Part shown: positions 1,477-47,993 of the stretch, in pieces
How the letters are laid out: the number at the start of each line of letters is the position of its first letter
Position numbering within the stretch: the stretch's first letter is position 1
IMG/VR virus record: IMGVR_UViG_3300029358_000325
Span: 1 to 64,000 of that record
DNA length: 64,000 nt
Origin: a virus
Direction: 5' to 3' (one strand)
Translations under genes and position numbers: made by a program
Notes under the pieces: model-generated
Database searches by the model: none
Told to the model about the DNA's origin: nothing
What the model saw: only the letters and a program-made list of their open reading frames with translations

Positions 1477-1549
1477 AAACAGACTCCTTACATTTACTAT
1501 AAAGAGCCTTGATGTGACACTATAAGTATACCACACCAAAGCTCTGATT

Positions 1550-1744: not shown

Positions 1745-2568
1745 TCAATCACCTTCTCCATCTTATGTTCACCATATTTAGCCACGCATACATTATATAA
1801 GAGCATGGCACGGGTCATGAGGCCAACCCCACCGATACGAGGAGTCACCTTGATATCTTCCATCTCATAAACGGCGGCAGCGCAATCACCATGCTGCTTT
1901 CCATTTTCGTCATAGTTGATGCCAACATCGATGCAAACCTCTACTCGATCAAGACCAAGCGGTGTGATGAAATTACGTTTTCCGACTGCAGAGATGATCA
2001 CATCGACCATATCCATTGCAAGAGCCGTGCACTTCATAAAACTTCCGCTGCTATTTACAGAGATCACATTACAGTGCCGCTTAATCAGCATATCGACCAA
2101 CGGACGACCTACGATGTCAGATTGACCACACACAAGCACATTCTTGCCATCCAGATCGTAATCGATGGAGTCAAAAATCTTCATAACGCCAAGCGGAGTG
2201 CAAGGCTGAAATGGCGATGTAGAATTAAAACCATCAACATCAACTGCGTCTGGAATGCAGATATTTTGGGGGTTGATATGTTTTGGCAACGGAAGCTGAA
2301 CAATGATACCGTCCACATATTCCCAATTATAATCTTCTAAGATCTTGTTATTCAATTCATCTTCAGTAATATTTTCTGGCAGTTTAATAAGTTCTACTTC
2401 GATTCCCACCTCTTCACAGTCACGCAATTTACCTCTAATATAAGCATTAGACGCAGGATTATCCCCTACTTGATAAATATGTAAAACAGGAGTGTAATCG
2501 GCATCTGCGATAATATTCTTGATTTTATCTTTGATATCTTGTGCAATAGATTTGCAATCAATAATCAT
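1741..2568 (-). CDS. folD: Bifunctional 5,10-methylene-tetrahydrofolate dehydrogenase / methenyl-THF cyclohydrolase.
   Basis: 275 aa. Motifs YIRGKLRDCEEVGI, LVCGQSDIVGRPL and TPRIGGVGLMTRAMLLYN match FolD. AGGAGG SD before the ATG at 2568. Confidence 0.85.
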   Translation of the reverse strand: MIIDCKSIAQDIKDKIKNIIADADYTPVLHIYQVGDNPASNAYIRGKLRDCEEVGIEVELIKLPENITEDELNNKILEDYNWEYVDGIIVQLPLPKHINPQNICIPDAVDVDGFNSTSPFQPCTPLGVMKIFDSIDYDLDGKNVLVCGQSDIVGRPLVDMLIKRHCNVISVNSSGSFMKCTALAMDMVDVIISAVGKRNFITPLGLDRVEVCIDVGINYDENGKQHGDCAAAVYEMEDIKVTPRIGGVGLMTRAMLLYNVCVAKYGEHKMEKVIE

Positions 2569-8257: not shown

Positions 8258-8812
8258 TTATTTTCCTTTCTCTTCTGGAGTCCACCAAAGGACTGGTCTT
8301 CGCAAAGCAAAACTCTTATTACAGCCGATTACACGTTGATTGGAACTCCCCATGTACGGCAAAGAGATATCTCGTTTAGATTCAATATATGGGCCATCGA
8401 CTAGCACGTTTATGTTTCGAATAATTGTTACCGTTGTCGGAATAGTTTGATATTCCAATTCTTCTGCCGCCTGTTGAATCAATTCTTCCCATGTATATCC
8501 AGTCCACATCCAAATGTCTTTGCTTCCTTCAAACTCGTGTCTGACTCTTATTAGAATTTTGCAAATCATCTCCCTGTTCTCTGGATACAGTGGGTCTCCA
8601 CCAGTAAGCGTAAGCCCCTGAATATAATCAGGTCGAAGTAAATCTACAATTTTATCAAGCGTTTCTTCTGTGAATGGCTGACCACCATTCGGGTCCCATG
8701 TAGTAGGATTCTGGCAACCGGGGCAATGGTGATTGCAACCAGCACAGAATAACGTGACTCTTACGCCCGGACCATTCGCTATATCACATGGGACAATCTT
8801 CATATAATTCAT
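8258..8812 (-). CDS. nrdG: Anaerobic ribonucleotide reductase activating protein (radical SAM). Start at MNYMK, with a GAGGGA SD.
   Basis: CDIANGPGVRVTLFCAGCNHHCPGCQNP is the NrdG-type cysteine cluster. The gene lies in a dNTP-metabolism block that also carries nrdD (13.2-15.4 kb). Confidence 0.8.
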   Translation of the reverse strand: MNYMKIVPCDIANGPGVRVTLFCAGCNHHCPGCQNPTTWDPNGGQPFTEETLDKIVDLLRPDYIQGLTLTGGDPLYPENREMICKILIRVRHEFEGSKDIWMWTGYTWEELIQQAAEELEYQTIPTTVTIIRNINVLVDGPYIESKRDISLPYMGSSNQRVIGCNKSFALRRPVLWWTPEEKGK

Positions 8813-8899
8813 CAGTGTTCCCTCGTGCTTTATTGATTTCGTTTGCCGCAATTTTCGCATCACTTTCTGTGTCATAAATATTACGAATGTAATACTCAA

Positions 8900-9221: not shown

Positions 9222-9418
9222 TTTAAATCACCTTTGTCCATAGACTCACACATACGATAATAAGAATATTCAGTGCAACGACAGTCCACTTTACATATTT
9301 AAGTTTGATGTCATACATTACAGTATTACGTAAGAAATCGTATAGAATTTCTTCAGAGCGGATAATTGCGGCTGTAAGAATCAAAACGATATACGATTTA
9401 ACAAGCATCCAAACAATC

Positions 9419-13250: not shown

Positions 13251-15446
13251 TTAGTTATCGCTCAGATGAACTACTCGATCTCGAATCTCTTGCGTCCGCC
13301 CCTGATTCCAAAACTGAGTCCCAATAAATCCGCAGGTACGTCGTGCAACATTCAGTTTATTCTGGTCTCGATTACCACAATTTGGGCATTCCCAAACAAG
13401 CTTACCATTGTCCTCGACAATCTTAATCTCGCCGTCATAACCACAAACCTGACAATAATCAGACTTGATGTTCAGCTCTGCGTAGATAATAGTGTCGTAG
13501 ATGTATTTGATGACACTCATCACAGCAGGAATGTTGTTGGTCATATTAGGGCACTCGATATACGAGATGGCTCCGCCGGGAGACAGCTGCTGGAACTCAG
13601 ACTCAAACTTCAGCTTCTTGAATGCATCAATATGCTCACGAACCACGACATGATAGCTATTGGTGATGTAATCATGGTCGGTTACATCTGGAATGATGCC
13701 AAACCGCTTTTGCAGGCACTTGGCGAACTTGTAGGTGGTGGATTCCAGCGGGGTGCCGTAAAGACTATAATCAATATTTTCTGCTGCCTTCCACTCACTG
13801 CACTTGTCGTTCATGTGCTGCATAATCTCAAGAGCAAAAGGTTTTGCTTCATCATCGGTATGGCTCTTACCGGTCATGTACTTTACGCATTCATACAGAC
13901 CTGCGTAACCTAAACTGATGGTTGCATATCCGTCAAACAGCAATTTATCAATCTTCTCGCCCTTCTTCAAACGTGCGATTGCACCATGCTGAAAATGAAT
14001 TGGACTCACATCAGAAGGCGTACCCATCAATCGCTTATACCGAATCTGAAGTGCTCGATGGCACAGTTCAAGACGCTCATCAAAAATTCTCCAAAACTCA
14101 GAAACATCCTTCTTAGAGCTACAAGCAACATCTACCAGATTGATGGTGACAACACCGGCATTAAAGCGACCATAGTACTTGTGACCCTTTCCCCAATTCA
14201 TGGCACCAGAAATATTCTCGGTGGTTCGATCAGGGGTCAGGAAGCTCCGGCAGCCCATGCAAGGATAGCAAGCACCCTTGTATTCCAACATCTTCTTCTC
14301 AGAAATGTAGTCGGGCACAAACCTCTTGGCAGTACATTTAGCTGCCAGTTCAGTCAGATAGTAATACTTAGAATTATCTCGAATGTTATCTTCTTCCAGC
14401 ACATAAATCAGCTTTGGGAAAGCCGGAGTAATCCATGCACCAGTCTCATTCTTCACGCCTTTAATACGCTGACGAAGGACTTCTTCAATGATAATTGCAA
14501 GGTCATCACGGGTCTGGCCTTCAGGAACTTCATCCAGATACATAAAAACAGTAATAAAAGGAGCTTGCCCGTTAGTGGTCATCAAAGTAATAACCTGATA
14601 CTGAATAGTCTGAACGCCTGCAACGATTTCTTTATGTAAACGCTTCTCTACAATTCGATTGATAGTCTCCTGATTTGGCATCTTGTCAATCTCATTGTTT
14701 TGAATCATGTCGTAAAACTCCTCATGGACTTCACCCGTAATCTTCTTTCGAGAGACGTCCACGAAAGGAGCCAAATGAGACAGAGTAATACTCTGACCAC
14801 CATATTGGTTGGAAGCAACCTGTGCAATAATCTGGGTTGCAATATTGCACGCTGTAGAGAAACTATGTGGTTTGTCGATTCCAGTGCCAGAAATCACAGT
14901 GCCGTTTTGAAGCATGTCTTCCAGATTGACTAGCGAGCAGTTAAACATGTGCTGGGCAAAATAGTCGGAATCGTGAAAATGAATTCGGCCATCATAGTGA
15001 GCGTCCACAATATCTTTCGGGAGAAGCAGATTGAAGCTCAGATCTTTGGAGACCTCGCCAGCCATATAGTCACGCTGCACGCTATTCACAACAGGATTTT
15101 TGTTGCTGTTTTCCTGCTTGACCTTCTCATTGTCTACATCACAGATGGAAAGAATTTCGCCATATGCTCGCTGTTTCTCACGAATCTCCTGCCGAAGAAT
15201 ACGCCAGTGACTATAAGCGTCAGCCACATCCGAAAGAGGGCTATTTTTCAACTGGTCAATAACCACATCCTGAATCTGCTCTACAGACATCGTATCATGG
15301 ATGTCCGCGATGTAGTCTGCAATAGCGTTAGATACGCGAGAATCAACTCCTCCAGTCGTATTCGTCATTGCCTTCTCAATCGCATTTACAATCTTACTTT
15401 TATCAAAAGGAACTTTCGTTCCATCGCGTTTAATCACATATTCCAT
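13251..15446 (-). CDS. nrdD: Anaerobic ribonucleoside-triphosphate reductase, class III. Start at MEYVIKRDG, with an AAGGAG SD.
   Basis: N-terminal ATP-cone (KRDGTKVPFDKSKIVNAIEKA), a large catalytic body, and a C-terminal glycyl-radical region (RRTCGFIGTQFWNQGRTQEI). nrdG is nearby. Confidence 0.85.
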   Translation of the reverse strand: MEYVIKRDGTKVPFDKSKIVNAIEKAMTNTTGGVDSRVSNAIADYIADIHDTMSVEQIQDVVIDQLKNSPLSDVADAYSHWRILRQEIREKQRAYGEILSICDVDNEKVKQENSNKNPVVNSVQRDYMAGEVSKDLSFNLLLPKDIVDAHYDGRIHFHDSDYFAQHMFNCSLVNLEDMLQNGTVISGTGIDKPHSFSTACNIATQIIAQVASNQYGGQSITLSHLAPFVDVSRKKITGEVHEEFYDMIQNNEIDKMPNQETINRIVEKRLHKEIVAGVQTIQYQVITLMTTNGQAPFITVFMYLDEVPEGQTRDDLAIIIEEVLRQRIKGVKNETGAWITPAFPKLIYVLEEDNIRDNSKYYYLTELAAKCTAKRFVPDYISEKKMLEYKGACYPCMGCRSFLTPDRTTENISGAMNWGKGHKYYGRFNAGVVTINLVDVACSSKKDVSEFWRIFDERLELCHRALQIRYKRLMGTPSDVSPIHFQHGAIARLKKGEKIDKLLFDGYATISLGYAGLYECVKYMTGKSHTDDEAKPFALEIMQHMNDKCSEWKAAENIDYSLYGTPLESTTYKFAKCLQKRFGIIPDVTDHDYITNSYHVVVREHIDAFKKLKFESEFQQLSPGGAISYIECPNMTNNIPAVMSVIKYIYDTIIYAELNIKSDYCQVCGYDGEIKIVEDNGKLVWECPNCGNRDQNKLNVARRTCGFIGTQFWNQGRTQEIRDRVVHLSDN

Positions 15447-15457
15447 GCAATCACTCC

Positions 15458-16264
15458 TTAATCTTCCAACCAACGATTTTCTGCCACATAGAAAGCTCCA
15501 ACCGCAACTACCATCAATACGACCCAGAATACCCAAAACCAAATCACTCGTGTACCAGCTGCAGAAATCATATAATCTCGTGCTTCTTCGATGTTTTTAT
15601 CCTTAATGAATTGTGCATTATGTATACTTTTATCGCTCAAATTCGCGTATAATGTACCACCATAACGAACATCTTTGACATAAAACTCGAACTTTACATG
15701 AGAACTGACTTGTACAGTGGTCAGGTACTTGCTGGATGGCATTTTGATGTCACCATACTTAAATTCTTTTCCCAGAAACGTTACATTTTTGGAACTGTGC
15801 TCTTCTGAGCTGTAATAGTCCCAAGTCCAGTACGTTTCGACTCTTGTTCTTGTATGGCCTTTACCATCCGTAGTAGTGACAGTTCGTGTATGCATCGTAT
15901 AGTGCTTTTCTTCGCAATAGATGTACATCCACTGGCCGTCGATACGTGGATCGCTTACGGTATCTACTGCTTCTAGTGCGCCTTGGCAAAACGCATTACC
16001 TACGTTGGTTCTCATTCCATAATCGAACATATTTTCGGACTCAATCGAAATTGCTGTATTATATTCTTTTTTCTGCTCAAGTGAATCTCTGGTGATATTT
16101 CCAGCGATAACGCTACCAAGTATCAGCATAATGAACACAATACCAACACTGACGATCAATTCACGATAAGTAATTTCGGCATTACCGATTTCCAAAAAGG
16201 TTACCGACTGCCGGTGCCGCCTCATTCCCCTCATAGGACAGATACTCATAATTCTGAACCTCAT
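15458..16264 (-). CDS. Membrane protein of unknown function with two TM segments. The track over-extends the N-terminus into lemA.
   Basis: TM helices LIVSVGIVFIMLILGSVIAGNI and VIWFWVFWVVLMVVAVGAFYVA. Downstream partner of LemA. Confidence 0.3.
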   Translation of the reverse strand: MRFRIMSICPMRGMRRHRQSVTFLEIGNAEITYRELIVSVGIVFIMLILGSVIAGNITRDSLEQKKEYNTAISIESENMFDYGMRTNVGNAFCQGALEAVDTVSDPRIDGQWMYIYCEEKHYTMHTRTVTTTDGKGHTRTRVETYWTWDYYSSEEHSSKNVTFLGKEFKYGDIKMPSSKYLTTVQVSSHVKFEFYVKDVRYGGTLYANLSDKSIHNAQFIKDKNIEEARDYMISAAGTRVIWFWVFWVVLMVVAVGAFYVAENRWLED

Positions 16265-16752: not shown

Positions 16753-17286
16753 TTAAAACTTGACTTCATCGACATGGACTTTAGAGTTCAGCATCGAATG
16801 GTCAACCTTATTAACTCCTTTGTTATTCGGAGACATAGCATCATTATGAACACTCGGAACCACGGCAGTTTCGATGTTCTGCTCGTATGCGTTTGGACGA
16901 TAAACACAATCGTTTACCCAACAATTAAGTCTAGGATCGTAAAAATTTCCTTGGCTGTCTTTTTTCGGCATCGTAGCCAGCTTATCATTAGCCTCATCAG
17001 GAATCTTCTTGAGCGTATCTACGACACTTTCGGCAATCTTCTGCTGTTCCTCTAAAAGCCGGATTTTATAGTCCAAATACTTACGTGCCTTCATCAAATC
17101 TTGAAGCTTAGAATTGCCATCTTTGTGTCCTGCCCGGCTCAAATACTTACCAACATTCCAAAGATAAGCATCCTTGTCCAGTTGCCACTCTCGCAGCACT
17201 TTGATAGCCTCATAGGGATTGTCTGCACCGCCGTAATAAGACGGGTGCTCGACGTTCTTCTTAATTTCGTCAAGTGTTTGCATCAA
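16753..17286 (-). CDS. Conserved phage hypothetical protein.
   Basis: 177 aa. HPSYYGGADNPYEAIKVL motif. Function unknown. Confidence 0.25.
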   Translation of the reverse strand: MMQTLDEIKKNVEHPSYYGGADNPYEAIKVLREWQLDKDAYLWNVGKYLSRAGHKDGNSKLQDLMKARKYLDYKIRLLEEQQKIAESVVDTLKKIPDEANDKLATMPKKDSQGNFYDPRLNCWVNDCVYRPNAYEQNIETAVVPSVHNDAMSPNNKGVNKVDHSMLNSKVHVDEVKF

Positions 17287-17987
17287 TAACCTCCTTGTTT
17301 TTTTTCAATAGGCTTATAAACATCTGCCAACCTAGGATGACGGCCACAGCAGCCACGACCTTCTGGGCAGAACGGATACTTCGGATTAGCCTCGCAGGAA
17401 GGAACCATCCAGTTTGCCACTTCAGGACAAACCTGTGCAACTTCCTTCTTCATTTCTGTAAACATCTCGCGGATTTCTTTTTGGGCCCTAGAACAAAGTC
17501 GAAGATGGCTCATCTCAATCAAAGCACGAGCGTTCATCGTAATGTAAAACTCTGTACAGCAAGCATTTGGCAGAACTGCACGGGCGTCTTCATTTTTGGC
17601 GTTGTGATACTTCTTGAGAATCTGATAATCGGTATCAATGTCCGACATCATATTATCGAAAACATCAGCATCTTCACCGGTAAACGGGTTCACATATTTG
17701 AATCCATCCTCGCTGCAATAACGTTGGCTGCGGCAGCTCATGCTAATATGTCGATGACGACTAATCTGTGCCAGAAGTGCTCGGCTTACATCTTTGACGT
17801 AAAACGTAAAATTGATGTGCTCAAGCACAGAATAGTGACCGCTTGCCTTACATCCCTTAGCAATCTTATAATCGTCAGTCATTGAAGAATCGTAACAAAT
17901 ACTCGCAGCTTCCTCCACAATATCTAAAGGATTCTTATCACTTGTAGGAACAACTCGCTGTGTGTACGCGATCAAATCAACAATCAT
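17283..17987 (-). CDS. thyX: Flavin-dependent thymidylate synthase.
   Basis: ThyX signature RHRHISMSCRSQRY (RHR-x7-S), SVLEH and YSVLEHINFTF. GGAGG SD before the ATG at 17987. Confidence 0.85.
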   Translation of the reverse strand: MIVDLIAYTQRVVPTSDKNPLDIVEEAASICYDSSMTDDYKIAKGCKASGHYSVLEHINFTFYVKDVSRALLAQISRHRHISMSCRSQRYCSEDGFKYVNPFTGEDADVFDNMMSDIDTDYQILKKYHNAKNEDARAVLPNACCTEFYITMNARALIEMSHLRLCSRAQKEIREMFTEMKKEVAQVCPEVANWMVPSCEANPKYPFCPEGRGCCGRHPRLADVYKPIEKKQGGY

Positions 17988-20254: not shown

Positions 20255-21586
20255 TTAGCCGTAGCTTACTTCGTTCTTATCATCTCGGAATCGTACAAAC
20301 GTCGGGAATTGCAGAGACTCAAGGCCAGTCTTTTTGTCCATCGTGACCTCTTTGTACTTACATTCCACAATCTTACCGATGTAATTATCGGGATTCGCCC
20401 ACACAGCAGCTCTCGTAGCATCATCAAAACCGGAACCAACACGAAGTTCGTTACCCTTGTAGTCAACAACAAGAGCGCCCATCGTACCAGCCAGACGGTT
20501 CTGACCTTCCTCAATCGCTGTGATTCGCAGATCGACCGTATAGAATCGCTTGATTTTGAGACATCCGTTGTGACGAGCCCGGCGATAAGGGACATCCGTG
20601 TTCAACATAAGACCTTCCCAATCGTGTTCGACAGCATAATCAAGCCACTTCGGAATCACACTCTGGTCAGTACCTTCATATACCATTGGAACAATTTCAA
20701 TATTCTCAAGGTGCTTGCGAGTAATCTCTGCGCGAAGACAATTTATCCCAATACGGCGAATTTTATATGGGATAGTACACTTTCCACGGTCGAACTCTAC
20801 AACAGGAATCACATCAAAAATCACAAATTTGATTCCAGTCTTGTCCTTGTTATCAGAATTAAGTAGGCCAGTGCCATAACGAAAAGCCTCTCCGTCCGAC
20901 ATTCTTTCTGGGTTCTTGTAGATCAGCTCACCATCAAACACCCACGCATCTCGCCTTGAGGCGTCTTCGTCGTATAGAGCGAGCAGATCATTCTTTATAT
21001 GGTCGAGCCCTTTAAACTTCTGAGCCTGCCGAGAGATGAGCTCGCCTTTATACATGGTGCCCCTATTGCCATTCATCTTCTGGCTCAAACTGAACCAAAT
21101 GCCATCCTTCAGCTTTACCTTATCAATCGGATATCCCTGCTGGACCTCCCAGACTGGAATAATCTCTTCGCCGTACACTTTATTGATGGTCGCTGCCTCG
21201 ACTCCAATCGGCAAGTTCTTAGTGAACAGTCGCTTCAGAAACTCTTCGTATTCAGGATTTTTATGTAAATAATTCTGGATTGTTACAATGGATGCATCAG
21301 AGCCAGTATTATGCCCAGCACCCATAATATAAAGGTATCCGCAGCTGAGATACTGAATATCGATATCAGGCTTTGCCGTTACCTTCTTGTTGATCTTTGC
21401 ATCAGACAGGCCAGTCACAATCGCTGGGTCAAGCAGGAATTTGAAGAATGCCATTAGCTCGTCAGCTTCATCTCCAAAATCCTTACGTGCATCCAACAAA
21501 ATGCGGGTCTTGTCCGTCTTTTTCTTTGCTTTCTGCAATGCCTTAACCATCGCATTAAGCTTACCTATGAGCTCTTTATCTGTCAT
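20255..21586 (-). CDS. lig: ATP-dependent DNA ligase.
   Basis: Nucleotidyltransferase motifs are present. Motif I is the K-x-N-G variant (SQKMNGNRG). Motif III is WVFDGELIY, motif IV is DWEGLMLN, and motif V is CLKIKRF. The conserved 21-bp motif plus an AAGGAGG SD sit upstream. Confidence 0.75.
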   Translation of the reverse strand: MTDKELIGKLNAMVKALQKAKKKTDKTRILLDARKDFGDEADELMAFFKFLLDPAIVTGLSDAKINKKVTAKPDIDIQYLSCGYLYIMGAGHNTGSDASIVTIQNYLHKNPEYEEFLKRLFTKNLPIGVEAATINKVYGEEIIPVWEVQQGYPIDKVKLKDGIWFSLSQKMNGNRGTMYKGELISRQAQKFKGLDHIKNDLLALYDEDASRRDAWVFDGELIYKNPERMSDGEAFRYGTGLLNSDNKDKTGIKFVIFDVIPVVEFDRGKCTIPYKIRRIGINCLRAEITRKHLENIEIVPMVYEGTDQSVIPKWLDYAVEHDWEGLMLNTDVPYRRARHNGCLKIKRFYTVDLRITAIEEGQNRLAGTMGALVVDYKGNELRVGSGFDDATRAAVWANPDNYIGKIVECKYKEVTMDKKTGLESLQFPTFVRFRDDKNEVSYG

Positions 21587-40800: not shown

Positions 40801-40876
40801 TGGTGGAATAGTCGAGATTTGAACTCGTGTCTGACAATTATAAGTTGTCGGCTCTAACCAGCTGAGCTACTATTCC
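40801..40876 (-). tRNA. tRNA-Ile, anticodon UAU.
   Basis: On the reverse complement, the acceptor stem is GGAATAG/CTATTCC, the D stem GCTC/GAGC, and the anticodon stem GACAA/TTGTC with loop CTTATAA. T loop TTCAAAT, discriminator A, CCA encoded. Confidence 0.65.
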
Positions 40877-40902
40877 ATATAAACGCCAACTTTCGTCGGC
40901 GC

Positions 40903-40975
40903 GATGCCAGTGGAGGGATCGAACCTCATCTCTCGGTGTTTCCGAGCGCTTTTACCATTAAGCTATCCAGCCGTA
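40903..40975 (-). pseudogene. Degenerate tRNA-like element. D and T arms are intact; the anticodon loop and acceptor pairing are aberrant.
   Basis: The reverse complement has D stem GCTT/AAGC with loop AATGGTAA and a T arm GAGGTTCGATCCCTC. The anticodon stem CTCGG/CCGAG encloses only 5 nt (AAACA). No 7-bp acceptor pairing can be drawn and no CCA is encoded. Confidence 0.35.
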
Positions 40976-41103
40976 TACCTCAGAATTTAATTCCTACTAT
41001 CAAAGCTACGTCGCGTTCCAATATGATCACTCTTGGCAACCATGTCGTAACATATAGGTTCCTTTCGGCTCTGAGCAACCGGTGCAGCGTCAGGGGCTGC
41101 GTG

Positions 41104-41179
41104 TGGAGCGACTGACGGGGGACGATCTCGCAACATTCAGATTGGAAATCTGACGCTCTACCAATTGAACTACAGTCGC
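41104..41179 (-). tRNA. tRNA-Gly, anticodon UCC.
   Basis: Acceptor GCGACTG/CAGTCGC, D arm TAGTTCAATTGGTAGAGC, and a perfect anticodon stem TCAGA/TCTGA with loop TTTCCAA. Discriminator U, CCA encoded. The T loop is non-canonical (ATCGTCC). Confidence 0.6.
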
Positions 41180-41360
41180 ATAAGAACCAACCTAGCAACT
41201 GGCATCACTAGGCTGGGATACTCGGCTTACAAAGGCACGCTGCACTCTTTCGGGCGAGCCGAGAATAACGCACATGAAAAATTTCGTTAGCCCATTTCGG
41301 GGTGGTATCTCGCACAGGCGCAGCCGGATTTGACCGCTAAAAATCCTACCCATACGAGAT

Positions 41361-41436
41361 TGGAGCAACCAACGGGACTCGAACCCGCCCTCTCTGCTTG
41401 GAAGGCAGATGTGCTAACCACTAACACCATAGCTGC
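41361..41436 (-). tRNA. tRNA-Gly, anticodon UCC (second, divergent copy).
   Basis: Acceptor GCAGCTA/TGGTTGC with G-U pairs. Anticodon stem TCTGC/GCAGA with loop CTTCCAA. T arm GCGGGTTCGAGTCCCGT. Discriminator U, CCA encoded. Confidence 0.55.
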
Positions 41437-41543
41437 ACAATCACCCAGCTTACAAAGCACTACTGCACCATCACTGGCGAGCCGGGAATAATAGTGGCAG
41501 TCAAAGGAGATCAACAAAACGGTACGCAACCATTCTATGACCG

Positions 41544-41625
41544 TGGTGCGGATAGTGGGCATCGAACCCACACGCCGAAGCACCAGATCCTAAATCTGGC
41601 GTGTCTGCCACTCCACCATATCCGC
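41544..41625 (-). tRNA. tRNA-Leu, anticodon UAG (type II).
   Basis: Acceptor GCGGATA/TATCCGC. Anticodon stem CCAGA/TCTGG with loop TTTAGGA. Long variable arm with a GC-TTCG-GC hairpin. T arm GTGGGTTCGATGCCCAC. Discriminator A, CCA encoded. Confidence 0.7.
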
Positions 41626-41630
41626 ATAAA

Positions 41631-41701
41631 TTGCGCCAACAGGGGTCGAACCTGTGATGGAGGAGTCAAAGTCCTCTGCCTTACCGCTTGGCGATGGCGC
41701 A
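41631..41701 (-). tRNA. tRNA-Gln, anticodon UUG.
   Basis: U1-A72 acceptor TGCGCCA/TGGCGCA. D arm TCGCCAAGCGGTAAGGCA, as in bacterial tRNA-Gln. Anticodon stem GAGGA/TCCTC with loop CTTTGAC. T arm ACAGGTTCGACCCCTGT. No CCA encoded. Confidence 0.7.
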
Positions 41702-41788
41702 TCATATACCCAGCTTACTACGTCACACTGCTCCGTTTCCAGAGAGCTGGGAATAATGTGAATGAAAATTCTACATACCCTTTCGGAC

Positions 41789-41864
41789 TGGCCTGAGCGA
41801 CAAGATTTGAACTTGCGGTCCCCTGTTCCCAAAACAGGTGCGATACCAACTTCGCTACGCCCAG
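41789..41864 (-). tRNA. tRNA-Pro, anticodon UGG.
   Basis: C1-G72 acceptor CTGGGCG/CGCTCAG. D stem GCGA/TCGC. Anticodon stem CCTGT/ACAGG with loop TTTGGGA. T loop TTCAAAT. CCA encoded. Confidence 0.7.
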
Positions 41865-41871
41865 ATATAAA

Positions 41872-41954
41872 TGCGCCCGGCGGGACTTGAACCCGCACGC
41901 CATCTCTGGCAGAAGATCTTAAGTCTCCTGTGTCTGCGATTCCACCACGGGCGC
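41872..41954 (-). tRNA. tRNA-Leu, anticodon UAA (type II).
   Basis: Acceptor GCGCCCG/CGGGCGC. Anticodon stem GGAGA/TCTTC with loop CTTAAGA. Long variable arm GCCAGAGATGGC. T arm GCGGGTTCAAGTCCCGC. Discriminator A, no CCA encoded. Confidence 0.65.
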
Positions 41955-42154
41955 ATATAAAAGAAGATCAGAAACAGCCAACCATTCGTTTTACATTCTA
42001 GTTTTCTGACGAACCGAAGAGTATTTATCCGATAGCTAGTCGGCTTACACCTTATTTCTCTTCTTGTCTGGCTTGACATCCTTTACCGGTATGACGTCTT
42101 TCCGGTCGCCAATGTACGGCCAATCCCCGAACGAGCTAGAACAACTGATCTTCA

Positions 42155-42239
42155 TGGTAGGGATAATCGGATTTGAACCGATACGTCTTTCGACACTTGA
42201 GTTTGAATCAAGCGTGGCTGCCAATTTCACCATATCCCC
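42155..42239 (-). tRNA. tRNA-Leu, anticodon CAA (type II).
   Basis: Acceptor GGGGATA/TATCCCT. Anticodon stem CTTGA/TCAAG with loop TTCAAAC. Long variable arm GTGTCGAAAGACGT. T arm ATCGGTTCAAATCCGAT. Discriminator A, CCA encoded. Confidence 0.65.
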
Positions 42240-42356
42240 ATATCGCCGGTCTTTCCCGGCTGTCAGCCCCGCGCAGGGCATTTTCGGAGGAAGAAATACC
42301 ACGATATTTCGTTAATTATTTTGACGAAAATCACGATAAAATGTCTATTTTTTAAT

Positions 42357-44576
42357 TTAGCTCTTCTGCTGACTTGCGTAGAACTCATTCCGCAGCTGAA
42401 TAATACCCTTCTTGCAGAAAGACTCTTGATCTTTCTCTCGTTGTTCACGCATCCAACCATAGAACAGGTTATCCTCGGCAGTAAACAACTTTGCGGTATT
42501 TTCATAATAGCCACGTTTTTGAACGCTCTGCATGACACCACGCAAGAACTTCCAGTGCTTATAATACGGAAGCTTCAGCTTAAACATGAAATTATTGCTG
42601 TCTCGCAAAACAAAGCCTTCAACGTGTTCAAAACCATGATGCAGATAGTTCTCGTTCATGACTTCTTCGTACCAAGGATAGAATTCACTCCAGTTCTCAA
42701 AGGTTTTAACCTTCTCCTTAATCTGCAGATGACACTTCTCGGCTACACGCTTCAAATCATCATAATCCATTACACTGAAATTCATATCATTTGCAATAAT
42801 ATCCAGCAAAACAATGTGCGGTTTCTTATATTCGATGATATGTGCATCATTCACAGGATCAATCACCTCGAAGATGATGGAGCCATTCTCTTTTGCAACT
42901 TCTTTCAGATTCTTACGATCTTCATCAGAAGTCGTATCCATGAGAATCTTTCGGAACATATCTGCAAAAGGCCCATCAGGAGTGGATTTACTTGCAATGA
43001 ACAGACCATCCTGTTCTGCATCATACGAAATGATACCAAGAAATCCGTTCTCTTTTAGATATGCAGTCACCGGGAACTTCAAAGTGTTCTGTAGGTTTCC
43101 AATTCTCGTTTCATTCCGCTCATCAACCGCAAAGAACTTATCATAGCTTCGAGCTACAATCTTATTCGTCTTTGTGTTAATGAACAACCCTCTTGCTTTG
43201 GTAGAAACCTCATCCCAGTGCTTCTTATAAAATGCTTCACGAGAGAAGTTGAAAGAAGAAATATCTCCGAATCGCTTCTCAAACACATATTTGCTTTGAC
43301 GCATCTTACTAACAAGTTCTGCGTTATCGAACTCAGTTTTCATTTCAACGGCAGTTTCAGTCTTTGGCTCCTCTTTTCGGAATACATCATTCTTGGTTTC
43401 TACGCATTTGATAGGCTGACCGTGTTCAAGCTCCACACAACGAAGATATCCACCAAACTCGATTTTGCCTTCAAGATTGTAGCACCGATGACCCATATCA
43501 ATAGGAACATCCTGTACATTTCGATGGCCGAAGATCTGAATATAGCTATCCGGCATCGACTTTTCCCAAGACTCAGCCACGGTCAGTATATCAGGATAGC
43601 GGCCTACGCCTTTAATCATCTGATCCGCAGACACGAACGGAAGAAAATAAGGAAGATAGCTCAGACCACCGTGACTTACGAAATACCGCTTACCATCATA
43701 CTCAAAGTAGACACACTGGCCGACTCTGGAATAGATCTTACGAGCAGTGTTCTTGTCAATACCGGCTTTAAAGAGCTGCGGACTAGTGTAGTTTGCAAAC
43801 TCTTCACTTTGAACCGGTTTATCATGCCCCCACTTGTTCAGCCAATGCTCGTGGTTCCCTTCCAAAAGGATCACATTCTTGCGGTTGTTATTTACAACAT
43901 CACACAAGAACTTGAATACCTCAACGTTTTCGATGCCACGATCGAGATAATCACCAACGAAGATATAAAGCTCGTCGTCCTTCATCTCACCAAGGTATTC
44001 ACTCAAGCAGGTATAGCAGCCATGAATATCACCGATGATATGTATCTTTTTCCACTGGTTAAAGTCATTCGGGCAGTAGTTCAAATCGGACATCACATCC
44101 GTAGTAGAAGGAAGAACTGTCACGCCAGAAGGAACTTTTTGAGTAGCAAACCGAGCGTACATCTTATCAATAGCCGCTTCAGGAACTCGCTTTAGCCATT
44201 CTCTCTGAGCGTTTCTTCGTTTGCATTCCTCGATCGGAAGGTCCGTCATATCAATAACATACATCCGATAACGATACTGTTTTGCAAGATTCTTATAACA
44301 ATTCATTTCGACCGTCTTGGAATTCGTTGCATCAATCACAGTAAACTCGCCATGGCTCATCCGCACCTCAAGCAGTTTGAAAAGCATCTCCCATACAACA
44401 TCATCATTCTGCTGAGAAATCTCCATCTGCCCATCAGGTGTTTCCTGTGCGCTCTGGCACATAAGGCGAAGTGTATCAGCACTCAATACGTACTGCTCAA
44501 GATTATGCTCTTTAATATAGGTGGACTTCCCGCAACCGGGTGCTCCACGGAACAGTAAAAGTGTTCTCATCTGCAT
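42357..44576 (-). CDS. pnkP: Pnkp-like trifunctional RNA repair enzyme: 5'-OH polynucleotide kinase, metallophosphoesterase-type 2',3'-phosphatase, and a ligase-like nucleotidyltransferase.
   Basis: N-terminal P-loop kinase LLLFRGAPGCGKSTYIKEH. Central calcineurin-like domain with IIGDIHGCY, FVGDYLDRGIENVE, LLEGNHE and FGHRN. The C-terminal domain has a K-x-x-G motif (STKARGLFINTKTNKIVARSYDKFF). The domain order matches bacterial Pnkp. It is preceded by a terminator, the 21-bp motif and an SD. Confidence 0.6.
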   Translation of the reverse strand: MQMRTLLLFRGAPGCGKSTYIKEHNLEQYVLSADTLRLMCQSAQETPDGQMEISQQNDDVVWEMLFKLLEVRMSHGEFTVIDATNSKTVEMNCYKNLAKQYRYRMYVIDMTDLPIEECKRRNAQREWLKRVPEAAIDKMYARFATQKVPSGVTVLPSTTDVMSDLNYCPNDFNQWKKIHIIGDIHGCYTCLSEYLGEMKDDELYIFVGDYLDRGIENVEVFKFLCDVVNNNRKNVILLEGNHEHWLNKWGHDKPVQSEEFANYTSPQLFKAGIDKNTARKIYSRVGQCVYFEYDGKRYFVSHGGLSYLPYFLPFVSADQMIKGVGRYPDILTVAESWEKSMPDSYIQIFGHRNVQDVPIDMGHRCYNLEGKIEFGGYLRCVELEHGQPIKCVETKNDVFRKEEPKTETAVEMKTEFDNAELVSKMRQSKYVFEKRFGDISSFNFSREAFYKKHWDEVSTKARGLFINTKTNKIVARSYDKFFAVDERNETRIGNLQNTLKFPVTAYLKENGFLGIISYDAEQDGLFIASKSTPDGPFADMFRKILMDTTSDEDRKNLKEVAKENGSIIFEVIDPVNDAHIIEYKKPHIVLLDIIANDMNFSVMDYDDLKRVAEKCHLQIKEKVKTFENWSEFYPWYEEVMNENYLHHGFEHVEGFVLRDSNNFMFKLKLPYYKHWKFLRGVMQSVQKRGYYENTAKLFTAEDNLFYGWMREQREKDQESFCKKGIIQLRNEFYASQQKS

Positions 44577-44591
44577 CTCCCTTTCTAATAG

Positions 44592-44612
44592 GTATCCTGT
44601 GTTATATAGTTA
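44592..44612 (-). promoter_or_regulatory. Conserved 21-bp motif, copy 6. It sits between a hairpin terminator and the Pnkp SD-ATG.
   Basis: The coding strand reads TAACTATATAACACAGGATAC, then CTATTAGAAAGGGAGATGCAGATG. Confidence 0.45.
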
Positions 44613-44625
44613 GCATGTTAAAATG

Positions 44626-44650
44626 AAGGGGCCGAAGCCCCCTGTTTTTA
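44626..44650 (-). terminator. Rho-independent-type hairpin terminator. It could act in both directions.
   Basis: GGGGC-CGAA-GCCCC stem-loop flanked by T-runs on both strands. Immediately after the stop of 44648-45574. Confidence 0.5.
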
Positions 44651-45574
44651 ATTTTCATGGAAATATTCAACCCAACCTTTATATCCTTGCCGGAAACTAA
44701 GATAGGCAACTTTACTGCACTTTCTTCCGATAATGTCCGCAAGAGGACCTTTACCATTTCCGAAACTAAGTTCTGCAAGATTAAATTTTGGATGAGTTTT
44801 ACAGTAGTTATAAACCTTGATATACTCACAATTTCTGGCTAAATATCTTTGATCTAAGGTTTTTGAATGATGCCTTTTTTCGAGGATATCGTTCAACCTC
44901 GAAAAATAGACATGAATTGAAATTATAGACGTCTTTGGATCACTGTTTACACCGGGTTTATCCTTCGTTTTGCGTAGGATATAATCGCCATTCATGACAT
45001 AAAATGTTCTATAACCGCTCTTATTGGGGGCATCATACTGTTTCATCTCGTAACATTGCTTGATAATATCCATTAACCTTGCGTCAACATCAGTCTTATC
45101 AAGAACGGTATTAGATTCAAAATCCACATCGTTAATTGTTAGATTAGAAATCTCATCGGAAGTAAGACCAATCCAGTACAAAACAGCAATTACGTTCATA
45201 CGAATCTGATATGGCTCTTCGTACTTATTTAAGAAGTCAACAAATTCGTCAACCGACGCAAAATAACTGTCATTGTACATATCATCTGCGCTTACATCGC
45301 TCTCTGAAAAGTCAGCCAGATCATACATGCTTGTTTCGTTTTCACTTTTGATGTAGCCTGTGATTATTGACTTCACATTTTTAAACGAACGACTCGAGTT
45401 CACCCAATTATATTTGGCAAACATCTTTACGAAATCATCTTTTGTGAAGTCAAACAACTCATACCCACGCTCGGCCTCGTAATCCATGACGTGACGCATC
45501 GTCGATGCAACAAACTCACCGCTTCTATCAGAATACTTTTCGGCAAAAGCTTTGATTTTTTCTTCAGTAAGCAT
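44648..45574 (-). CDS. Hypothetical protein with weak resemblance to a degenerate tyrosine-recombinase fold.
   Basis: 308 aa. IRMNVIAVLYWIGLTSDEISNLTINDVDF resembles recombinase box I but lacks the catalytic Arg. Followed by a hairpin terminator. Confidence 0.25.
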   Translation of the reverse strand: MLTEEKIKAFAEKYSDRSGEFVASTMRHVMDYEAERGYELFDFTKDDFVKMFAKYNWVNSSRSFKNVKSIITGYIKSENETSMYDLADFSESDVSADDMYNDSYFASVDEFVDFLNKYEEPYQIRMNVIAVLYWIGLTSDEISNLTINDVDFESNTVLDKTDVDARLMDIIKQCYEMKQYDAPNKSGYRTFYVMNGDYILRKTKDKPGVNSDPKTSIISIHVYFSRLNDILEKRHHSKTLDQRYLARNCEYIKVYNYCKTHPKFNLAELSFGNGKGPLADIIGRKCSKVAYLSFRQGYKGWVEYFHEN

Positions 45575-45627
45575 AGTGGCACACTCCTTCTTATTATATG
45601 TAGTGTACCATTAAACCTTATAAAAAA

Positions 45628-46047
45628 TCAAGCAAATGCGGCAAAATTCTGAAATTCCATGGTATGTTGTACGCCGCTCAGGAATGCTGCAAGCAAAAAC
45701 GGTTCATCCTTGCATCTTGCCATTGCGATCATATTCATCTGACGCTCCGACAAGACACCAAGTTTTTTAATGAACTGTCCTTTGTTAAGTGTATCAGTCT
45801 CTTCACATAGAACGATACTATCAACCTCTAGGAAATCACAATCTTCCTTTGAGAGTAGAACATGAACCGGAGAGCGCTTGTATATTCTGGAAGACAACGG
45901 ATTCCCTTTAATTGTTGGACTAAAGAAGTTGCGCTTATTGTTGCTCGTCACAACGAACGGTCGAATACCGCGCTGCTGATGACCTGTCGCATTGGATAGA
46001 TCAACCAACCAAACCTCTCCGACCTTTGGGTCAATATTGTTGTCCAT
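45628..46047 (-). CDS. mazF: MazF/PemK-family endoribonuclease (toxin-like). No recognisable antitoxin partner.
   Basis: KVGEVWLVDLSNATGHQQRGIRPFVVTSNN fits the MazF/PemK N-terminal signature (G-x-I/V-x-x-V-D/F ... G-x-E-Q-x-G-x-R-P-x-V-V). GAGGAG SD. Confidence 0.55.
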   Translation of the reverse strand: MDNNIDPKVGEVWLVDLSNATGHQQRGIRPFVVTSNNKRNFFSPTIKGNPLSSRIYKRSPVHVLLSKEDCDFLEVDSIVLCEETDTLNKGQFIKKLGVLSERQMNMIAMARCKDEPFLLAAFLSGVQHTMEFQNFAAFA

Positions 46048-46083: not shown

Positions 46084-46104
46084 TAGCTATATTATACAGG
46101 ATAC
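46084..46104 (+). promoter_or_regulatory. Conserved 21-bp motif, copy 7, in inverted orientation. It lies 37 nt upstream of the mazF-like ATG but points the opposite way.
   Basis: The plus strand reads TAGCTATATTATACAGGATAC. Confidence 0.35.
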
Positions 46105-46138
46105 CTTTACAGAAGTCAATAGGTTTTCAAAAATATTT

Positions 46139-46465
46139 TTAGTGCCCGTACAACTCTGGATTCTCTGATACGAACACGCTGGTGTTATCGAATATCATCT
46201 CATACGCTTTCTCTTTATCGCCCGGCCTAAACTCAACCCTCCTTACTTCGTGACATTCTTGCCGCAACTCAATATGACTTTCGTTTCCAAAAAATCCAAT
46301 GCCTTTGACAATCCCATGCGTCTCTACGCCAATGTCGTCCATCTTTTTGCAGATCATGTGAACATCCACACCATTGCAAATAAAACAGACCCACACTCGC
46401 TTTTTTCTTATGTACTTCAAAAAGTTCTCAACCTGTATAACTCCCAAAACCTTTTTCTCACTCAT
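46139..46465 (-). CDS. Hypothetical protein. Cys/His-rich, not MazE-like.
   Basis: 108 aa. ORF track only. Confidence 0.25.
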   Translation of the reverse strand: MSEKKVLGVIQVENFLKYIRKKRVWVCFICNGVDVHMICKKMDDIGVETHGIVKGIGFFGNESHIELRQECHEVRRVEFRPGDKEKAYEMIFDNTSVFVSENPELYGH

Positions 46466-47240: not shown

Positions 47241-47993
47241 TCAGATCTTTAAAGACTCCTCATTTACGGTCATCACAAGCTCGTTGACCCGCTTCCAATC
47301 AACATTGTCCGGCAGGTAAGTCTCGCTCTTGTCAACTGACAATCTGCTTTCATAGGCCGGAATCAGTTGCTGACGAATCTCTTTGTAATCATATTCACCG
47401 TTGCGAAGCTGCGTCAGGAAGTTATGATCATTGTCTCGATAGGTTTTAATTTCACCTTTTTCCAAGATGTCAAAGAGCATCAGGTATACACGAACTGCAT
47501 TCATTACCGTCTTGTGCATTTTCTTTGAATTATGGTAGATTGGATCTTTGTCTAATGTATCAGACTTCTGAATCAGCTTGCCTGCAAAACCTCCAAACGA
47601 GTAAATCACACGCTTTGAAAGGAATAGGTTTTTGTTGTCCATAAGTAGCTGCGTCATTGGGTTATAGCTAATAACGAGTTCATCGGCATTTCCTAACTGT
47701 TCCAGCATATTGGGATTTCCACTGCACATCAATTTCACAGCTTTGTTAAAGCTATAAATCGTTGTATCGGTCTGAGTGTCCACATAATGCTCAAACTCAC
47801 CGAGACCAAGAAGGTCTTCTTTTGAATTCAATGCTACACCTCGAATGTCAAGATCTGAGCCCTCAACATTTGTCCCGTAAGCATGACTGCCACCGACCGT
47901 TACGAACATCATATGCTTGCCAAGATGCTCATTCTCCCGAAGAAAACTATATTCTGGGAAGCATAACGCTCCAAGCAATTCATTTCTTGTCAT
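47241..47993 (-). CDS. Pol-beta-superfamily nucleotidyltransferase.
   Basis: GGSHAYGTNVEGSDLDIRGV is the G-S-x(9-13)-D-x-D nucleotidyltransferase signature. About 250 aa, similar in size to predicted standalone NTases. Confidence 0.5.
   Translation of the reverse strand: MTRNELLGALCFPEYSFLRENEHLGKHMMFVTVGGSHAYGTNVEGSDLDIRGVALNSKEDLLGLGEFEHYVDTQTDTTIYSFNKAVKLMCSGNPNMLEQLGNADELVISYNPMTQLLMDNKNLFLSKRVIYSFGGFAGKLIQKSDTLDKDPIYHNSKKMHKTVMNAVRVYLMLFDILEKGEIKTYRDNDHNFLTQLRNGEYDYKEIRQQLIPAYESRLSVDKSETYLPDNVDWKRVNELVMTVNEESLKI

Follow-up and report, generated by a model that had tools for sequence, protein, structure and literature searches.

Does a MazF-like endoribonuclease encoded beside the RNA repair and tRNA genes of a phage act with them as one counter-defence system, or does it belong to another part of the phage program? 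This question is raised by a stretch of viral DNA of 64,000 nucleotides (nt), positions 1 to 64,000 of the IMG/VR record IMGVR_UViG_3300029358_000325, the whole of which is hereafter called the window. Its minus strand encodes a cluster of tRNAs, and upstream (5′) of the tRNAs follow, in this order, the genes for a 739-amino acid (aa) protein with kinase, phosphatase, and ligase domains (designated as Pnk/Rnl), a 308-aa protein (int308), a 139-aa protein of the PemK/MazF family (MazF139), a 108-aa protein (p108), a 208-aa protein, and the 250-aa nucleotidyltransferase RlaP. The open reading frame (ORF) for the 208-aa protein, between p108 and RlaP, has a sole match to PHROG 18750, a group of unknown function. 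An earlier interpretation made from the letters of the DNA (the sequence-only reading) described the tRNAs, the repair enzyme, and MazF as an integrated module and placed MazF next to the repair enzyme. These two genes do not adjoin each other; the gene for the 308-aa protein (44648–45574), which was not mentioned in that reading, separates them.

The setting of the region is a temperate SPbeta-like prophage of about 135 kb from gut Bacillota. The SPbeta-like context is visible downstream in the window as AAA_24, primase-like, RecJ, Pol III alpha, and RecD2 proteins, and in relatives as YorF, AAA_24, YorH, DnaB, and Pol III alpha. Homologs of the 308-aa protein were found on contigs of 0.4–0.8 Mb, which indicates integrated prophages. 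When the DNA of the region was compared at near-identity with 50,697 phage records, a 147-base match alone was returned, and thus there is no close cultured relative.

Three separable modules meet in this region. The domain identities, the conservation of active sites, the gene linkage, the positions of transcription signals, and the motif statistics were established from the sequences compared. On this basis, an arrangement is somewhat favored in which a mazF-repressor lysogeny cassette (module 1) is followed, past its terminator, by facultative cargo composed of an RNA repair part (module 2) and a tRNA part (module 3). The separation into modules, taken alone, is held with considerable confidence.

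The Probable mazF-Repressor Cassette

The features of the cassette, all on the minus strand, are as follows.

46139..46465, minus strand: 108-aa ORF (p108) upstream of mazF, an antitoxin candidate by position only
46091..46119, minus strand: sigma-70-like promoter TTGACT-17-TATAAT upstream of mazF, with 11/12 consensus matches
45628..46047, minus strand: MazF-like endoribonuclease MazF139, 139 aa, PemK_toxin e-value 2.1e-19
45597..45602, minus strand: TACATA (UACAUA in mRNA), 28 nt before the start codon of the repressor gene, within the 53-nt mazF-mrpR spacer
44648..45574, minus strand: candidate MrpR/SroF/YopR-like repressor int308, 308 aa, tyrosine-recombinase fold, catalytically dead
44627..44643, minus strand: GC-rich hairpin with a T-tract, terminator-like, between the int308 stop and the Pnk/Rnl start

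The assignment of the 139-aa protein to the MazF/PemK family, already made in the sequence-only reading, was borne out by the profile, the fold, and the catalytic residues. PF02452 scores 70.1 bits against a cut-off of 23.1, and the nearest proteins are Staphylococcus aureus MazF (e-value 5e-14) and Bacillus subtilis EndoA (e-value 5e-11). The AlphaFold model has a predicted local distance difference test score (pLDDT) of 85, and its best structural matches in Foldseek are the same two proteins, SaMazF and BsMazF, with template modeling (TM) scores of 0.82–0.86. R29 is invariant, and Ser or Thr is observed at the position equivalent to T48. MazF139 extends beyond the canonical MazF with about 30 extra C-terminal residues (aa 108–139, nt 45631–45726), in which the pattern ARCxDEPFLxxAF...F is conserved in all clades and helices are predicted at residues 116–123 and 130–138. 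This extension might be a partner-binding or autoinhibitory element.

Conservation in the region is highest for MazF139, with 95.7–100% identity in 80 close relatives against 71–100% for int308. Between clades, MazF proteins are 59–68% identical, against 17–28% for the repressor and 12–27% for the ORF upstream of mazF. The subfamily is small; 44 clusters were found, all at least 60% identical, and scanning species-representative genomes with the MazF alignment gave no match.

The gene immediately downstream of mazF encodes a candidate for a recombinase-fold repressor of the SPbeta-like kind. The master repressor of SPbeta-like phages, MrpR/YopR/SroF, has a recombinase fold whose catalysis has been lost (PMC10516654; bioRxiv 10.1101/2025.11.27.690993). 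In int308, Thr takes the place of the catalytic Arg I (GLTSDE vs GLRISE), and MrpR is devoid of the same arginine, with V137/S138 where Cre has R173 (PMC10516654). The AlphaFold model of int308 has a pLDDT of 67 overall and 85–95 in the N-terminal domain. The top six PDB matches of this model in Foldseek are 9rd5 (phi3T SroF-DNA), 9rgl (SroF-Sar), 8a0a (SPbeta MrpR), two chains of 8bj6, and 8bpz (the latter two entries being YopR), and they rank above Tn1549 Int and Cre. The identity to the solved SroF and MrpR is 13–17%, and searches of PDB sequences with int308, both as a single sequence and as a profile, found neither of them; the fold search alone found them.

MrpR_N_CB (PF22822) scores 27.7–34.2 bits on the int308 homologs P0230, L160, and L165, and 46.3 bits on that of L245, above the cut-off of 27 (here and below, numbers with the prefix L designate the compared loci). 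MrpR_C_cat (PF22823) is a precomputed match on nearly all close int308 homologs. A profile of the gut proteins was aligned to the MrpR of the Bacillus phage Goe11 with an hhalign probability of 69.7% and an e-value of 4e-5 over 250 columns, and this bona fide MrpR (Goe11_c00870) itself matches MrpR_C_cat with an e-value of 5e-147. The possibility that int308 is the phage integrase was rejected, as Arg I is gone and the best structural matches are repressors. The window contains a Tn916-type integrase (319–1539) and another PF00589 protein (51747–52586).

The two genes are enclosed by transcription signals. Promoter-like boxes were recognized by eye upstream of mazF in other clades too, while the pattern script matched the window only. 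Past the stop codon of the MrpR-like gene, a hairpin of −13 to −20 kcal/mol is present in 6/6 clades examined, with unrelated sequences. The counts of consensus sites overall are not above the shuffle expectation, and it is their positions and conservation that carry weight. Nine of the 80 close relatives contain a 2.6-kb insertion exactly between the terminator of the repressor gene and Pnk/Rnl, with the spacing of mazF and int308 unchanged. The carriers are L037, L038, L041, L043, L051, L067, and L069–L071, in which the insertion is located at about 7380–10000; its 688-aa and 127-aa ORFs have no Pfam or PADLOC match. With these boundaries, the cassette would be a bicistronic unit consisting of a promoter, a mazF-like RNase gene, an MrpR/SroF-type repressor gene, and a terminator.

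Gene Linkage Across Lineages

The close relatives are 80 IMG/VR loci with Pnk/Rnl proteins 88–100% identical to that of the window, on contigs no longer than about 150 kb. Wherever a locus spans the region, the genes are kept in the order p108, mazF, int308, Pnk/Rnl, and tRNAs. These loci are too similar to be informative on linkage, and diverged lineages were therefore compared as well.

An MrpR-like gene follows mazF directly in 80/80 close relatives and in seven diverged lineages (L160–162, L163, L165, L166/167, L168, L177, and L245); two further lineages have another gene between them. The trio of PemK, MrpR-like, and Pnk/Rnl genes persists where Pnk/Rnl is 52–54% identical, with no tRNA within 10 kb (L160–163 and L166/167), and tRNAs are not beside Pnk/Rnl in L160–164 and L166/167. 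L165 and L168 have the PemK/MrpR-like pair and lack Pnk/Rnl altogether. Pnk/Rnl, in turn, is found without MazF in Goe11, in the Staphylococcus phage Twort, in a phage of Alicyclobacillus, and, among 80 bacterial loci, in about 76. In Goe11 (Spbetavirus), the fusion protein is 44% identical, and its gene follows aimR, aimP, and mrpR at a distance of a few genes. As the pair exists without Pnk/Rnl and Pnk/Rnl without MazF, mazF is linked to the repressor gene; the cargo, namely Pnk/Rnl, RlaP, and the tRNAs, is facultative.

These distributions bear on two statements of the sequence-only reading. The integrated module, which would have its parts co-occurring and co-transcribed, is not supported, as each part was found without the others and a conserved terminator hairpin is located between the repressor gene and Pnk/Rnl. 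The connection of the repair enzyme to the tRNA set of the phage is not a fixed one, the adjacency of tRNAs being facultative across lineages.

A single tRNA-Met(CAU) gene is located downstream of the MrpR-like gene in the two lineages with the pair and no Pnk/Rnl (L165, 9585–9660; L168, 10344–10419). It is placed right after the terminator in L165 and one 168-aa ORF further in L168. A recurrent cargo slot behind the repressor cassette is thus apparent.

UACAUA Sites and the Proposed Role in Lysogeny

Why should an RNase gene accompany a repressor gene? Arbitrium phages of Bacillus steer lysogeny via the host MazEF, by a mechanism that is still described as unknown. In phi3T, the host MazF favors lysogeny; AimX and YosL, which are MazE mimics, block MazF, and phi3T_93 binds MazE so that MazF is released (PMC10769878). 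In SPbeta, the operon yopMNOPQR, with mrpR as its last gene, also encodes YopM, a protein that binds the antitoxin MazE (PMC10516654). MazF sites are enriched in SPbeta and phi3T transcripts (bioRxiv 10.1101/2023.04.27.537455), and a strict cut site, U^ACAUA, is reported for the MazF proteins of B. subtilis, Listeria monocytogenes, and S. aureus (bioRxiv 10.64898/2026.08.06.743204).

In the window, TACATA is observed 42 times on the sense (minus) strand against 14.5 expected under a third-order Markov model (z 7.2, rank 1/3832). There are 14 antisense copies, and TACATC, TACATG, and TACATT are not enriched. The 42 sites are distributed over all three frames and 12 intergenic positions. The possibility that they are parts of a longer repeated element was discarded, as their flanks have no common motif. 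In the diverged clades pooled, 52 sites are present against 17.8 expected.

One of these sites is in the spacer between mazF and the repressor gene. TACATA is present in this spacer in 6/6 clades, the spacers being 51–76 nt long and the site 26–42 nt upstream of the start codon of the repressor. The chance of TACATA per spacer is 0.02–0.06; the spacers are homologous, and the six are thus not independent events. A relation of the spacer motif to the SroF operator of phi3T was also considered; the resemblance is short and probably due to chance.

From these observations, a more specific role can be proposed. MazF139 would be the phage-borne counterpart of the host MazF exploited by SPbeta and phi3T, produced together with the repressor. 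It would cut the UACAUA-rich transcripts of the phage, possibly including the mRNA of its own operon at a point shortly before the repressor cistron, and the cleavage would give the lysis-lysogeny switch a post-transcriptional arm. That SPbeta-like prophages of gut Clostridia internalized MazF into the operon of the master repressor in this manner, with MazF139 cutting phage transcripts and its own mRNA as a switch arm independent of host mazEF, is a tentative proposal with a low, though not negligible, probability. In a stronger variant, the repressor or the C-terminal tail of MazF would be the inhibitor, and an induction that inactivates the repressor would also free the RNase; the downstream Pnk/Rnl, RlaP, and tRNAs would then curb collateral damage to translation. 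If the proposal is true, the involvement of MazF is a general feature of SPbeta-like phages, and the system reaches from soil Bacillus to abundant human-gut prophages. The conserved spacer site and the genome-wide excess of sites make the RNA targets directly testable in that case.

The Repair Enzyme

Past the terminator of the cassette, the gene for the repair enzyme and its domains are located as follows.

42357..44576, minus strand: Pnk/Rnl, 739 aa, three Pfam domains, PHROG 8238 over the full length
44145..44561, minus strand: 5′-kinase domain of Pnk/Rnl (AAA_33, aa 6–144, e-value 1.5e-22)
43512..44048, minus strand: metallophosphoesterase domain of Pnk/Rnl (Metallophos, aa 177–355, e-value 2.3e-15)
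42561..43199, minus strand: Rnl1/Trl1-type ligase domain of Pnk/Rnl (RNA_lig_T4_1, aa 460–672, e-value 4e-41)

The Pfam profiles thus match all three of the domains that the sequence-only reading had ascribed to the 739-aa protein directly upstream of the tRNAs. Its label of a Pnkp-like enzyme holds for the kinase and the phosphatase only; the third domain is a ligase of the Rnl1/Trl1 type: PF09511 (RNA_lig_T4_1) scores 141.8 bits against a cut-off of 28.3, and among PDB proteins the ligase domain (aa 436–733) is related first to fungal and plant Trl1 (9qw7, e-value 3.4e-18; 6n0v; 6n67) and then to T4 Rnl1. The PDB relatives of the kinase domain are the kinase of Clostridium thermocellum Pnkp (4gp7 and 4jst), and those of the phosphatase domain are the lambda phosphatase and PPP-family enzymes. 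TIGR04075, the equivalog of bacterial Pnkp, scores 81.9 bits against a cut-off of 750, with residues 5–305 aligned to positions 9–323 of the 851 of the profile. Neither Hen1 nor a similar methyltransferase was found among the 46 ORFs of the window scanned with Pfam, a set covering part of the small ORFs. Membership in the Pnkp/Hen1 family was rejected on these three grounds: the TIGR04075 score far below its cut-off, the other ligase family, and no Hen1 among the ORFs scanned. By its sequence, Pnk/Rnl joins a healing part of the Pnkp type to a sealing part of the Rnl1/Trl1 type.

In an alignment of 14 homologs of 40–62% identity, none of the three active sites varies. The invariant residues are G16-K17 of the P-loop in the kinase; the motifs GDxH, GDxxDRG, GNH, and GH in the phosphatase; and motifs I (K508-E-N-G, that is, K508-x-N-G), IV (E653-G), and V (K666-x-K668) in the ligase. 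The enzymatic activities, like the cleavage specificity of MazF139, the function of the repressor, and the biological role, are predictions. The kinase would create a 5′-phosphate on broken RNA, the binuclear metallophosphatase would strip a 2′,3′-cyclic phosphate or a 3′-phosphate, and the ligase would seal the break via lysyl-AMP at K508. It is known that T4 Rnl1 seals tRNA ends in vitro after healing by the Clostridium thermocellum enzyme CthPnkp (PMC1920235).

The fusion is widespread, with thousands of homologs in Bacillota. It matches PHROG 8238, "RNA ligase", with an e-value of 3.5e-227 (residues 3–737 against positions 1–734 of the 737 of the profile), and is present in 130 deposited phage records, where it is mostly labelled "RNA ligase" or "hypothetical protein". 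The phages include Twort-like phages of Staphylococcus, Brochothrix phage A9, phages of Lactobacillus, Fusobacterium, and Alicyclobacillus, and the SPbeta-like Bacillus phages Goe11, Goe12, and SPbetaL2/3/8. At an e-value of 1e-10 or below, Pnk/Rnl has matches in over 4,700 protein clusters; the majority of the best 120 are full-length proteins that share the three Pfam domains at around 50% identity, and the named ones among these 120 come from Lachnospiraceae, Flintibacter, and Bacteroidales assemblies. No biochemical study of a kinase-metallophosphatase-Rnl1 fusion was found in the library searched. The protein is a clean, widespread, and apparently uncharacterized single-chain heal-and-seal enzyme, which combines CthPnkp-type healing with a Trl1/Rnl1-type ligase, with no Hen1 among the ORFs scanned. 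Its presence in cultured phages (Twort, A9, and SPbeta-like Bacillus phages) makes biochemistry feasible at once.

The tRNA Cluster and RlaP

The tRNA cluster spans 40801–42239 of the minus strand. The membership cut-off is the gathering score of Rfam RF00005, 29 bits. ARAGORN called eight tRNAs, the number given in the sequence-only reading, and the covariance model confirmed all eight with 52–64.5 bits. The tRNA-like relic of that reading was recovered as a ninth match, below the gathering score.

40801..40876, minus strand: tRNA-Ile (UAU), ARAGORN; Rfam 64.5 bits
40905..40971, minus strand: tRNA-like relic, sub-threshold; Rfam RF00005 28.2 bits, no ARAGORN call
41104..41179, minus strand: tRNA-Gly (UCC), copy b, ARAGORN; Rfam 56 bits
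41361..41436, minus strand: tRNA-Gly (UCC), copy a, ARAGORN; Rfam 53.6 bits; this slot varies among relatives
41544..41625, minus strand: tRNA-Leu (UAG), ARAGORN; Rfam 56.6 bits
41631..41701, minus strand: tRNA-Gln (UUG), ARAGORN; Rfam 60.4 bits
41789..41864, minus strand: tRNA-Pro (UGG), ARAGORN; Rfam 62.6 bits
41871..41955, minus strand: tRNA-Leu (UAA), ARAGORN; Rfam 52 bits
42155..42239, minus strand: tRNA-Leu (CAA), ARAGORN; Rfam 53.1 bits

Read by eye, the relic has an imperfect acceptor stem and an apparently shortened anticodon loop. The composition of the cluster varies among the close relatives. The last slot (40801–40876) contains tRNA-Ile(UAU) in the window and 3 relatives, and a tRNA with the anticodon CAU in 67/80 relatives; the two are similar in the acceptor stem and D-arm and differ in the anticodon stem. 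They may represent two routes to reading AUA, with or without lysidine modification. Most relatives have a single tRNA-Gly(tcc). In 17 relatives (L004, L007, L017, L026, and others), ARAGORN reports an odd "His(atg)" between tRNA-Leu(tag) and tRNA-Gly(tcc), which occupies the slot of the second Gly(UCC) gene of the window.

RlaP, the RNA-ligase-associated Pol-beta nucleotidyltransferase, is encoded just beyond the segment covered by the sequence-only reading (40801–46047).

47241..47993, minus strand: RlaP nucleotidyltransferase, 250 aa (PF10127 e-value 1.6e-18; PHROG 388 e-value 4.9e-44)

PF10127 scores 67.8 bits against a cut-off of 23, and the segment GGSHAYGTNVEGSDLDI resembles, by eye, the nucleotidyltransferase motif of Pol-beta. 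RlaP is kept in 26/75 close relatives that span the slot. Enzymes of the RlaP family add one or two nucleotides onto a damaged RNA 3′-OH, and were proposed as a counter to nucleases that remove nucleotides (PMC12776372). In the roughly one third of the genomes that retain it, RlaP could restore one or two lost 3′ nucleotides. The tRNA array would read codons that are rare in the genes of the phage, and modules 2 and 3 together would supply and repair tRNAs.

A Lar-like restriction alleviation protein (48262–48474, minus strand; PHROG 599, e-value 7e-11) is encoded just upstream of RlaP. In L166 (2245–7361) and L167 (770–5885), RlaP is followed by a faint phosphoribosyltransferase match, NAMPT/NAPRTase, and NAD synthase, upstream of mazF; this cluster looks like a salvage set for nicotinamide adenine dinucleotide (NAD), of the type proposed against NAD-depleting defences.

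The repair-plus-tRNA part is an already described phage strategy of tRNA supply and repair. The counter-defence theme in which phages carry their own tRNAs together with Rnl1, Rnl2, or RtcB ligases, polynucleotide kinases, phosphoesterases, and RlaP has been published (PMC7824862, section 3.4.9; PMC12776372). The sequence-only reading had not recognized in the locus a described system; novelty is not supported, given this literature and the membership of the fusion in PHROG 8238. Its idea of RNA counter-defence survives for the tRNAs, the heal-and-seal enzyme, and RlaP, which fit tRNA provisioning and RNA repair, and is not supported for their integration with MazF.

Alternative Explanations

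An explanation of modules 2 and 3 that is compatible with the three-module arrangement requires no link to anticodon nucleases: the tRNAs only compensate for codon usage, and Pnk/Rnl is an RNA-maintenance gene derived from hosts of the Lachnospiraceae type. It is a possible explanation, though a doubtful one. The tRNAs match codons that are rare in phage genes, the shares of the codons read by the array being 6% for AUA, 7% for CUA, 9% for UUA, 22% for GGA, 23% for CCA, and 30% for CAA, and gain or loss of the tRNAs is independent of that of Pnk/Rnl. Lachnospiraceae and Oscillospiraceae commonly carry the fusion on the chromosome, and in 80 species-representative bacterial genomes it is mostly a stand-alone chromosomal gene with unrelated neighbors, such as an AraC regulator, an aldo-keto reductase, LytR, and an ABC transporter; no conserved partner was found in these 80 loci, and the commonest neighbor family, the AraC regulator, is present at 13. 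Two points argue against this explanation: RlaP, which extends damaged RNA 3′ ends (PMC12776372), recurs near Pnk/Rnl in the phage group, and published comparative analyses interpret exactly such a gene set as counter-defence (PMC7824862).

For module 1, the mazF cassette could encode a toxin expressed in the lysogen for abortive infection, superinfection exclusion, or addiction, comparable to rexAB beside cI of lambda. A position in the repressor operon is typical for lysogen-expressed defence genes. The intact catalytic residues of MazF139 and its strong purifying selection next to fast-diverging neighbors speak for this explanation, and candidates for the inhibitor can be named: the upstream 108-aa ORF, the MrpR-like protein, or, in cis, the conserved helical C-terminal segment of MazF139. 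The upstream ORF, at about 100 nt from mazF, is never missing; it is 100–127 aa long in other clades, and p108 has a promoter-like site of its own. However, the low identity of these upstream ORFs between clades, 12–27% against 59–68% for MazF, is unusual for a cognate antitoxin. No match to p108 was found in Pfam, PHROG, NCBIfam, PADLOC, or the PDB, and PADLOC had none for MazF139, int308, Pnk/Rnl, RlaP, or the 688-aa protein of the insertion either. The MazE-like patterns GYxxM and MxxxYxEM, searched for in six frames, gave 5 scattered matches, none of them near mazF. One of them, GYQLMAELKK (53262–53276), is part of a 206-aa ORF without any family assignment and was found unconvincing as a MazE-like motif. 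The excess of UACAUA on the sense strand and the conserved spacer site are also left unexplained by a lysogen-expressed toxin, which is considered rather unlikely.

The single counter-defence operon, in which MazF cuts host RNA while the phage tRNAs and Pnk/Rnl, together with RlaP, supply and heal, is very improbable: it has in its favor that all parts are on one strand within 7 kb, that the gene order is invariant in the 80 close relatives, that MazF, the MrpR-like protein, and Pnk/Rnl stay together even at 52–54% Pnk/Rnl identity, and that tRNAs, Pnk/Rnl, and MazF are combined in another gene order in L237, L241, and L245, but synteny inside one phage family is weak evidence of coupling, the MazF/MrpR pair without Pnk/Rnl (L165 and L168) and Pnk/Rnl without MazF in most phages and most bacterial loci speak against it, the conserved terminator and the variable insertion point separate the two parts, and the presumed MazF site is enriched on the sense strand of the phage itself, opposite to the prediction for a host-directed weapon. 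Most likely, MazF139 does not serve as a weapon in partnership with the repair enzyme.

The combination of a mazF-repressor lysogeny cassette with facultative repair and tRNA cargo has to be weighed against a number of observations that weigh against it, in whole or in part. Some concern the RNase. No antitoxin or other MazF antagonist was identified that would let a lysogen tolerate an active RNase. The specificity of MazF139 is extrapolated from homologs that are 30–36% identical, and a scan of the larger ORFs in the 18 kb upstream revealed no arbitrium receptor. Others concern the sites. Chromosomal DNA of Lachnospiraceae has an about 2-fold excess of TACATA under a first-order model, and Goe11 is enriched in TACATA on both strands; part of the enrichment may be compositional. 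The spacers of L177 and L245 are devoid of TACATA, and the conserved spacer block TGGTATTCT..TACATA also fits an extended −10 promoter with a start site, or an operator.

The repressor and the cargo are open to similar objections. On int308 of the window itself, MrpR_N_CB (PF22822) has an e-value of 6e-4 and 20.8 bits, below the cut-off of 27; the model is mediocre (pLDDT 67, TM 0.24–0.32), and the repressor identity is drawn from weak lines of evidence that converge. No terminator-like site was found in the window between Pnk/Rnl and the first tRNA, and thus co-transcription of the two is possible in this clade. Arrays of tRNAs are located within 10 kb of Pnk/Rnl in L177, L208, L237, L241, and L245. 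These arrays are homologous and therefore not independent events; some functional association of Pnk/Rnl with tRNAs is plausible.

Other Features of the Window

A C5 cytosine methyltransferase ORF (39189–40571, minus strand) is apparently permuted or disrupted, with ENV near the N-terminus and the S-adenosylmethionine-binding motif FDGIGG at the C-terminal side; Pfam matches two short stretches only. It is overlapped in another frame by a 179-aa ORF (39935–40474) that is methylase-like in appearance. Among the other products of the window are an integrase of the Tn916 type, FolD, an anaerobic ribonucleotide reductase and the activase for it, ThyX, and a DNA ligase of the ATP-dependent kind.

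319..1539, 1741..2568, 8258..8899, 13251..15542, 17283..17987, and 20255..21586, minus strand: genes for the integrase, nucleotide metabolism, and DNA ligase proteins named above

These genes are consistent with a large temperate phage that has its own nucleotide metabolism.

Comparison with Known Systems

The proteins of PHROG 8238 (Twort ORF008, A9 gp147, and those of Goe11, Goe12, and SPbetaL2) are the same three-domain polypeptide as Pnk/Rnl, with 38–44% identity over 99% of the length. There is no structural difference; neither MazF nor a tRNA array was seen beside the gene in those phages. T4 Pnkp and Rnl1 carry out the three steps predicted for Pnk/Rnl (5′ kinase, 3′ end healing, and Rnl1-type sealing), with a ligase of the same family, PF09511. 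T4 uses two proteins and a DxDxT acylphosphatase, whereas the window encodes one polypeptide with a binuclear metallophosphoesterase. The N-to-C order of kinase, metallophosphatase, and ligase is the same as that of CthPnkp of the Pnkp/Hen1 system from Clostridium thermocellum, and the ligase family is different. Fungal and plant Trl1 is also a single-chain heal-and-seal enzyme, and its ligase domain is the nearest solved relative; however, its order is reversed (ligase, kinase, and cyclic phosphodiesterase), and its 2H phosphodiesterase leaves a 2′-phosphate that requires Tpt1, in place of which the enzyme of the window has a metallophosphatase.

MazF139 shares the toxin fold, the catalytic Arg, and the Thr/Ser with type II mazEF modules, those of S. 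aureus and B. subtilis having the nearest MazF. In contrast to these modules, no MazE was recognized, the downstream partner is a recombinase-fold repressor candidate, and the toxin has a tail of about 30 extra residues.

The yopMNOPQR (sro) system of SPbeta and phi3T would share several features with the proposed cassette: an operon closed by a recombinase-fold repressor, a MazF RNase in the lysis-lysogeny decision, transcripts rich in MazF sites, and a locus just upstream of the replication module. AimR/AimP, an AimX/YosL-like MazE mimic, and Sar were not recognized in the window. SPbeta and phi3T use the host MazEF, whereas the phage of the window encodes a MazF homolog itself, directly upstream of the repressor gene. 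A phage-encoded MazF in a repressor operon with a conserved candidate cut site would be a new twist on the SPbeta/MazF lysogeny theme.

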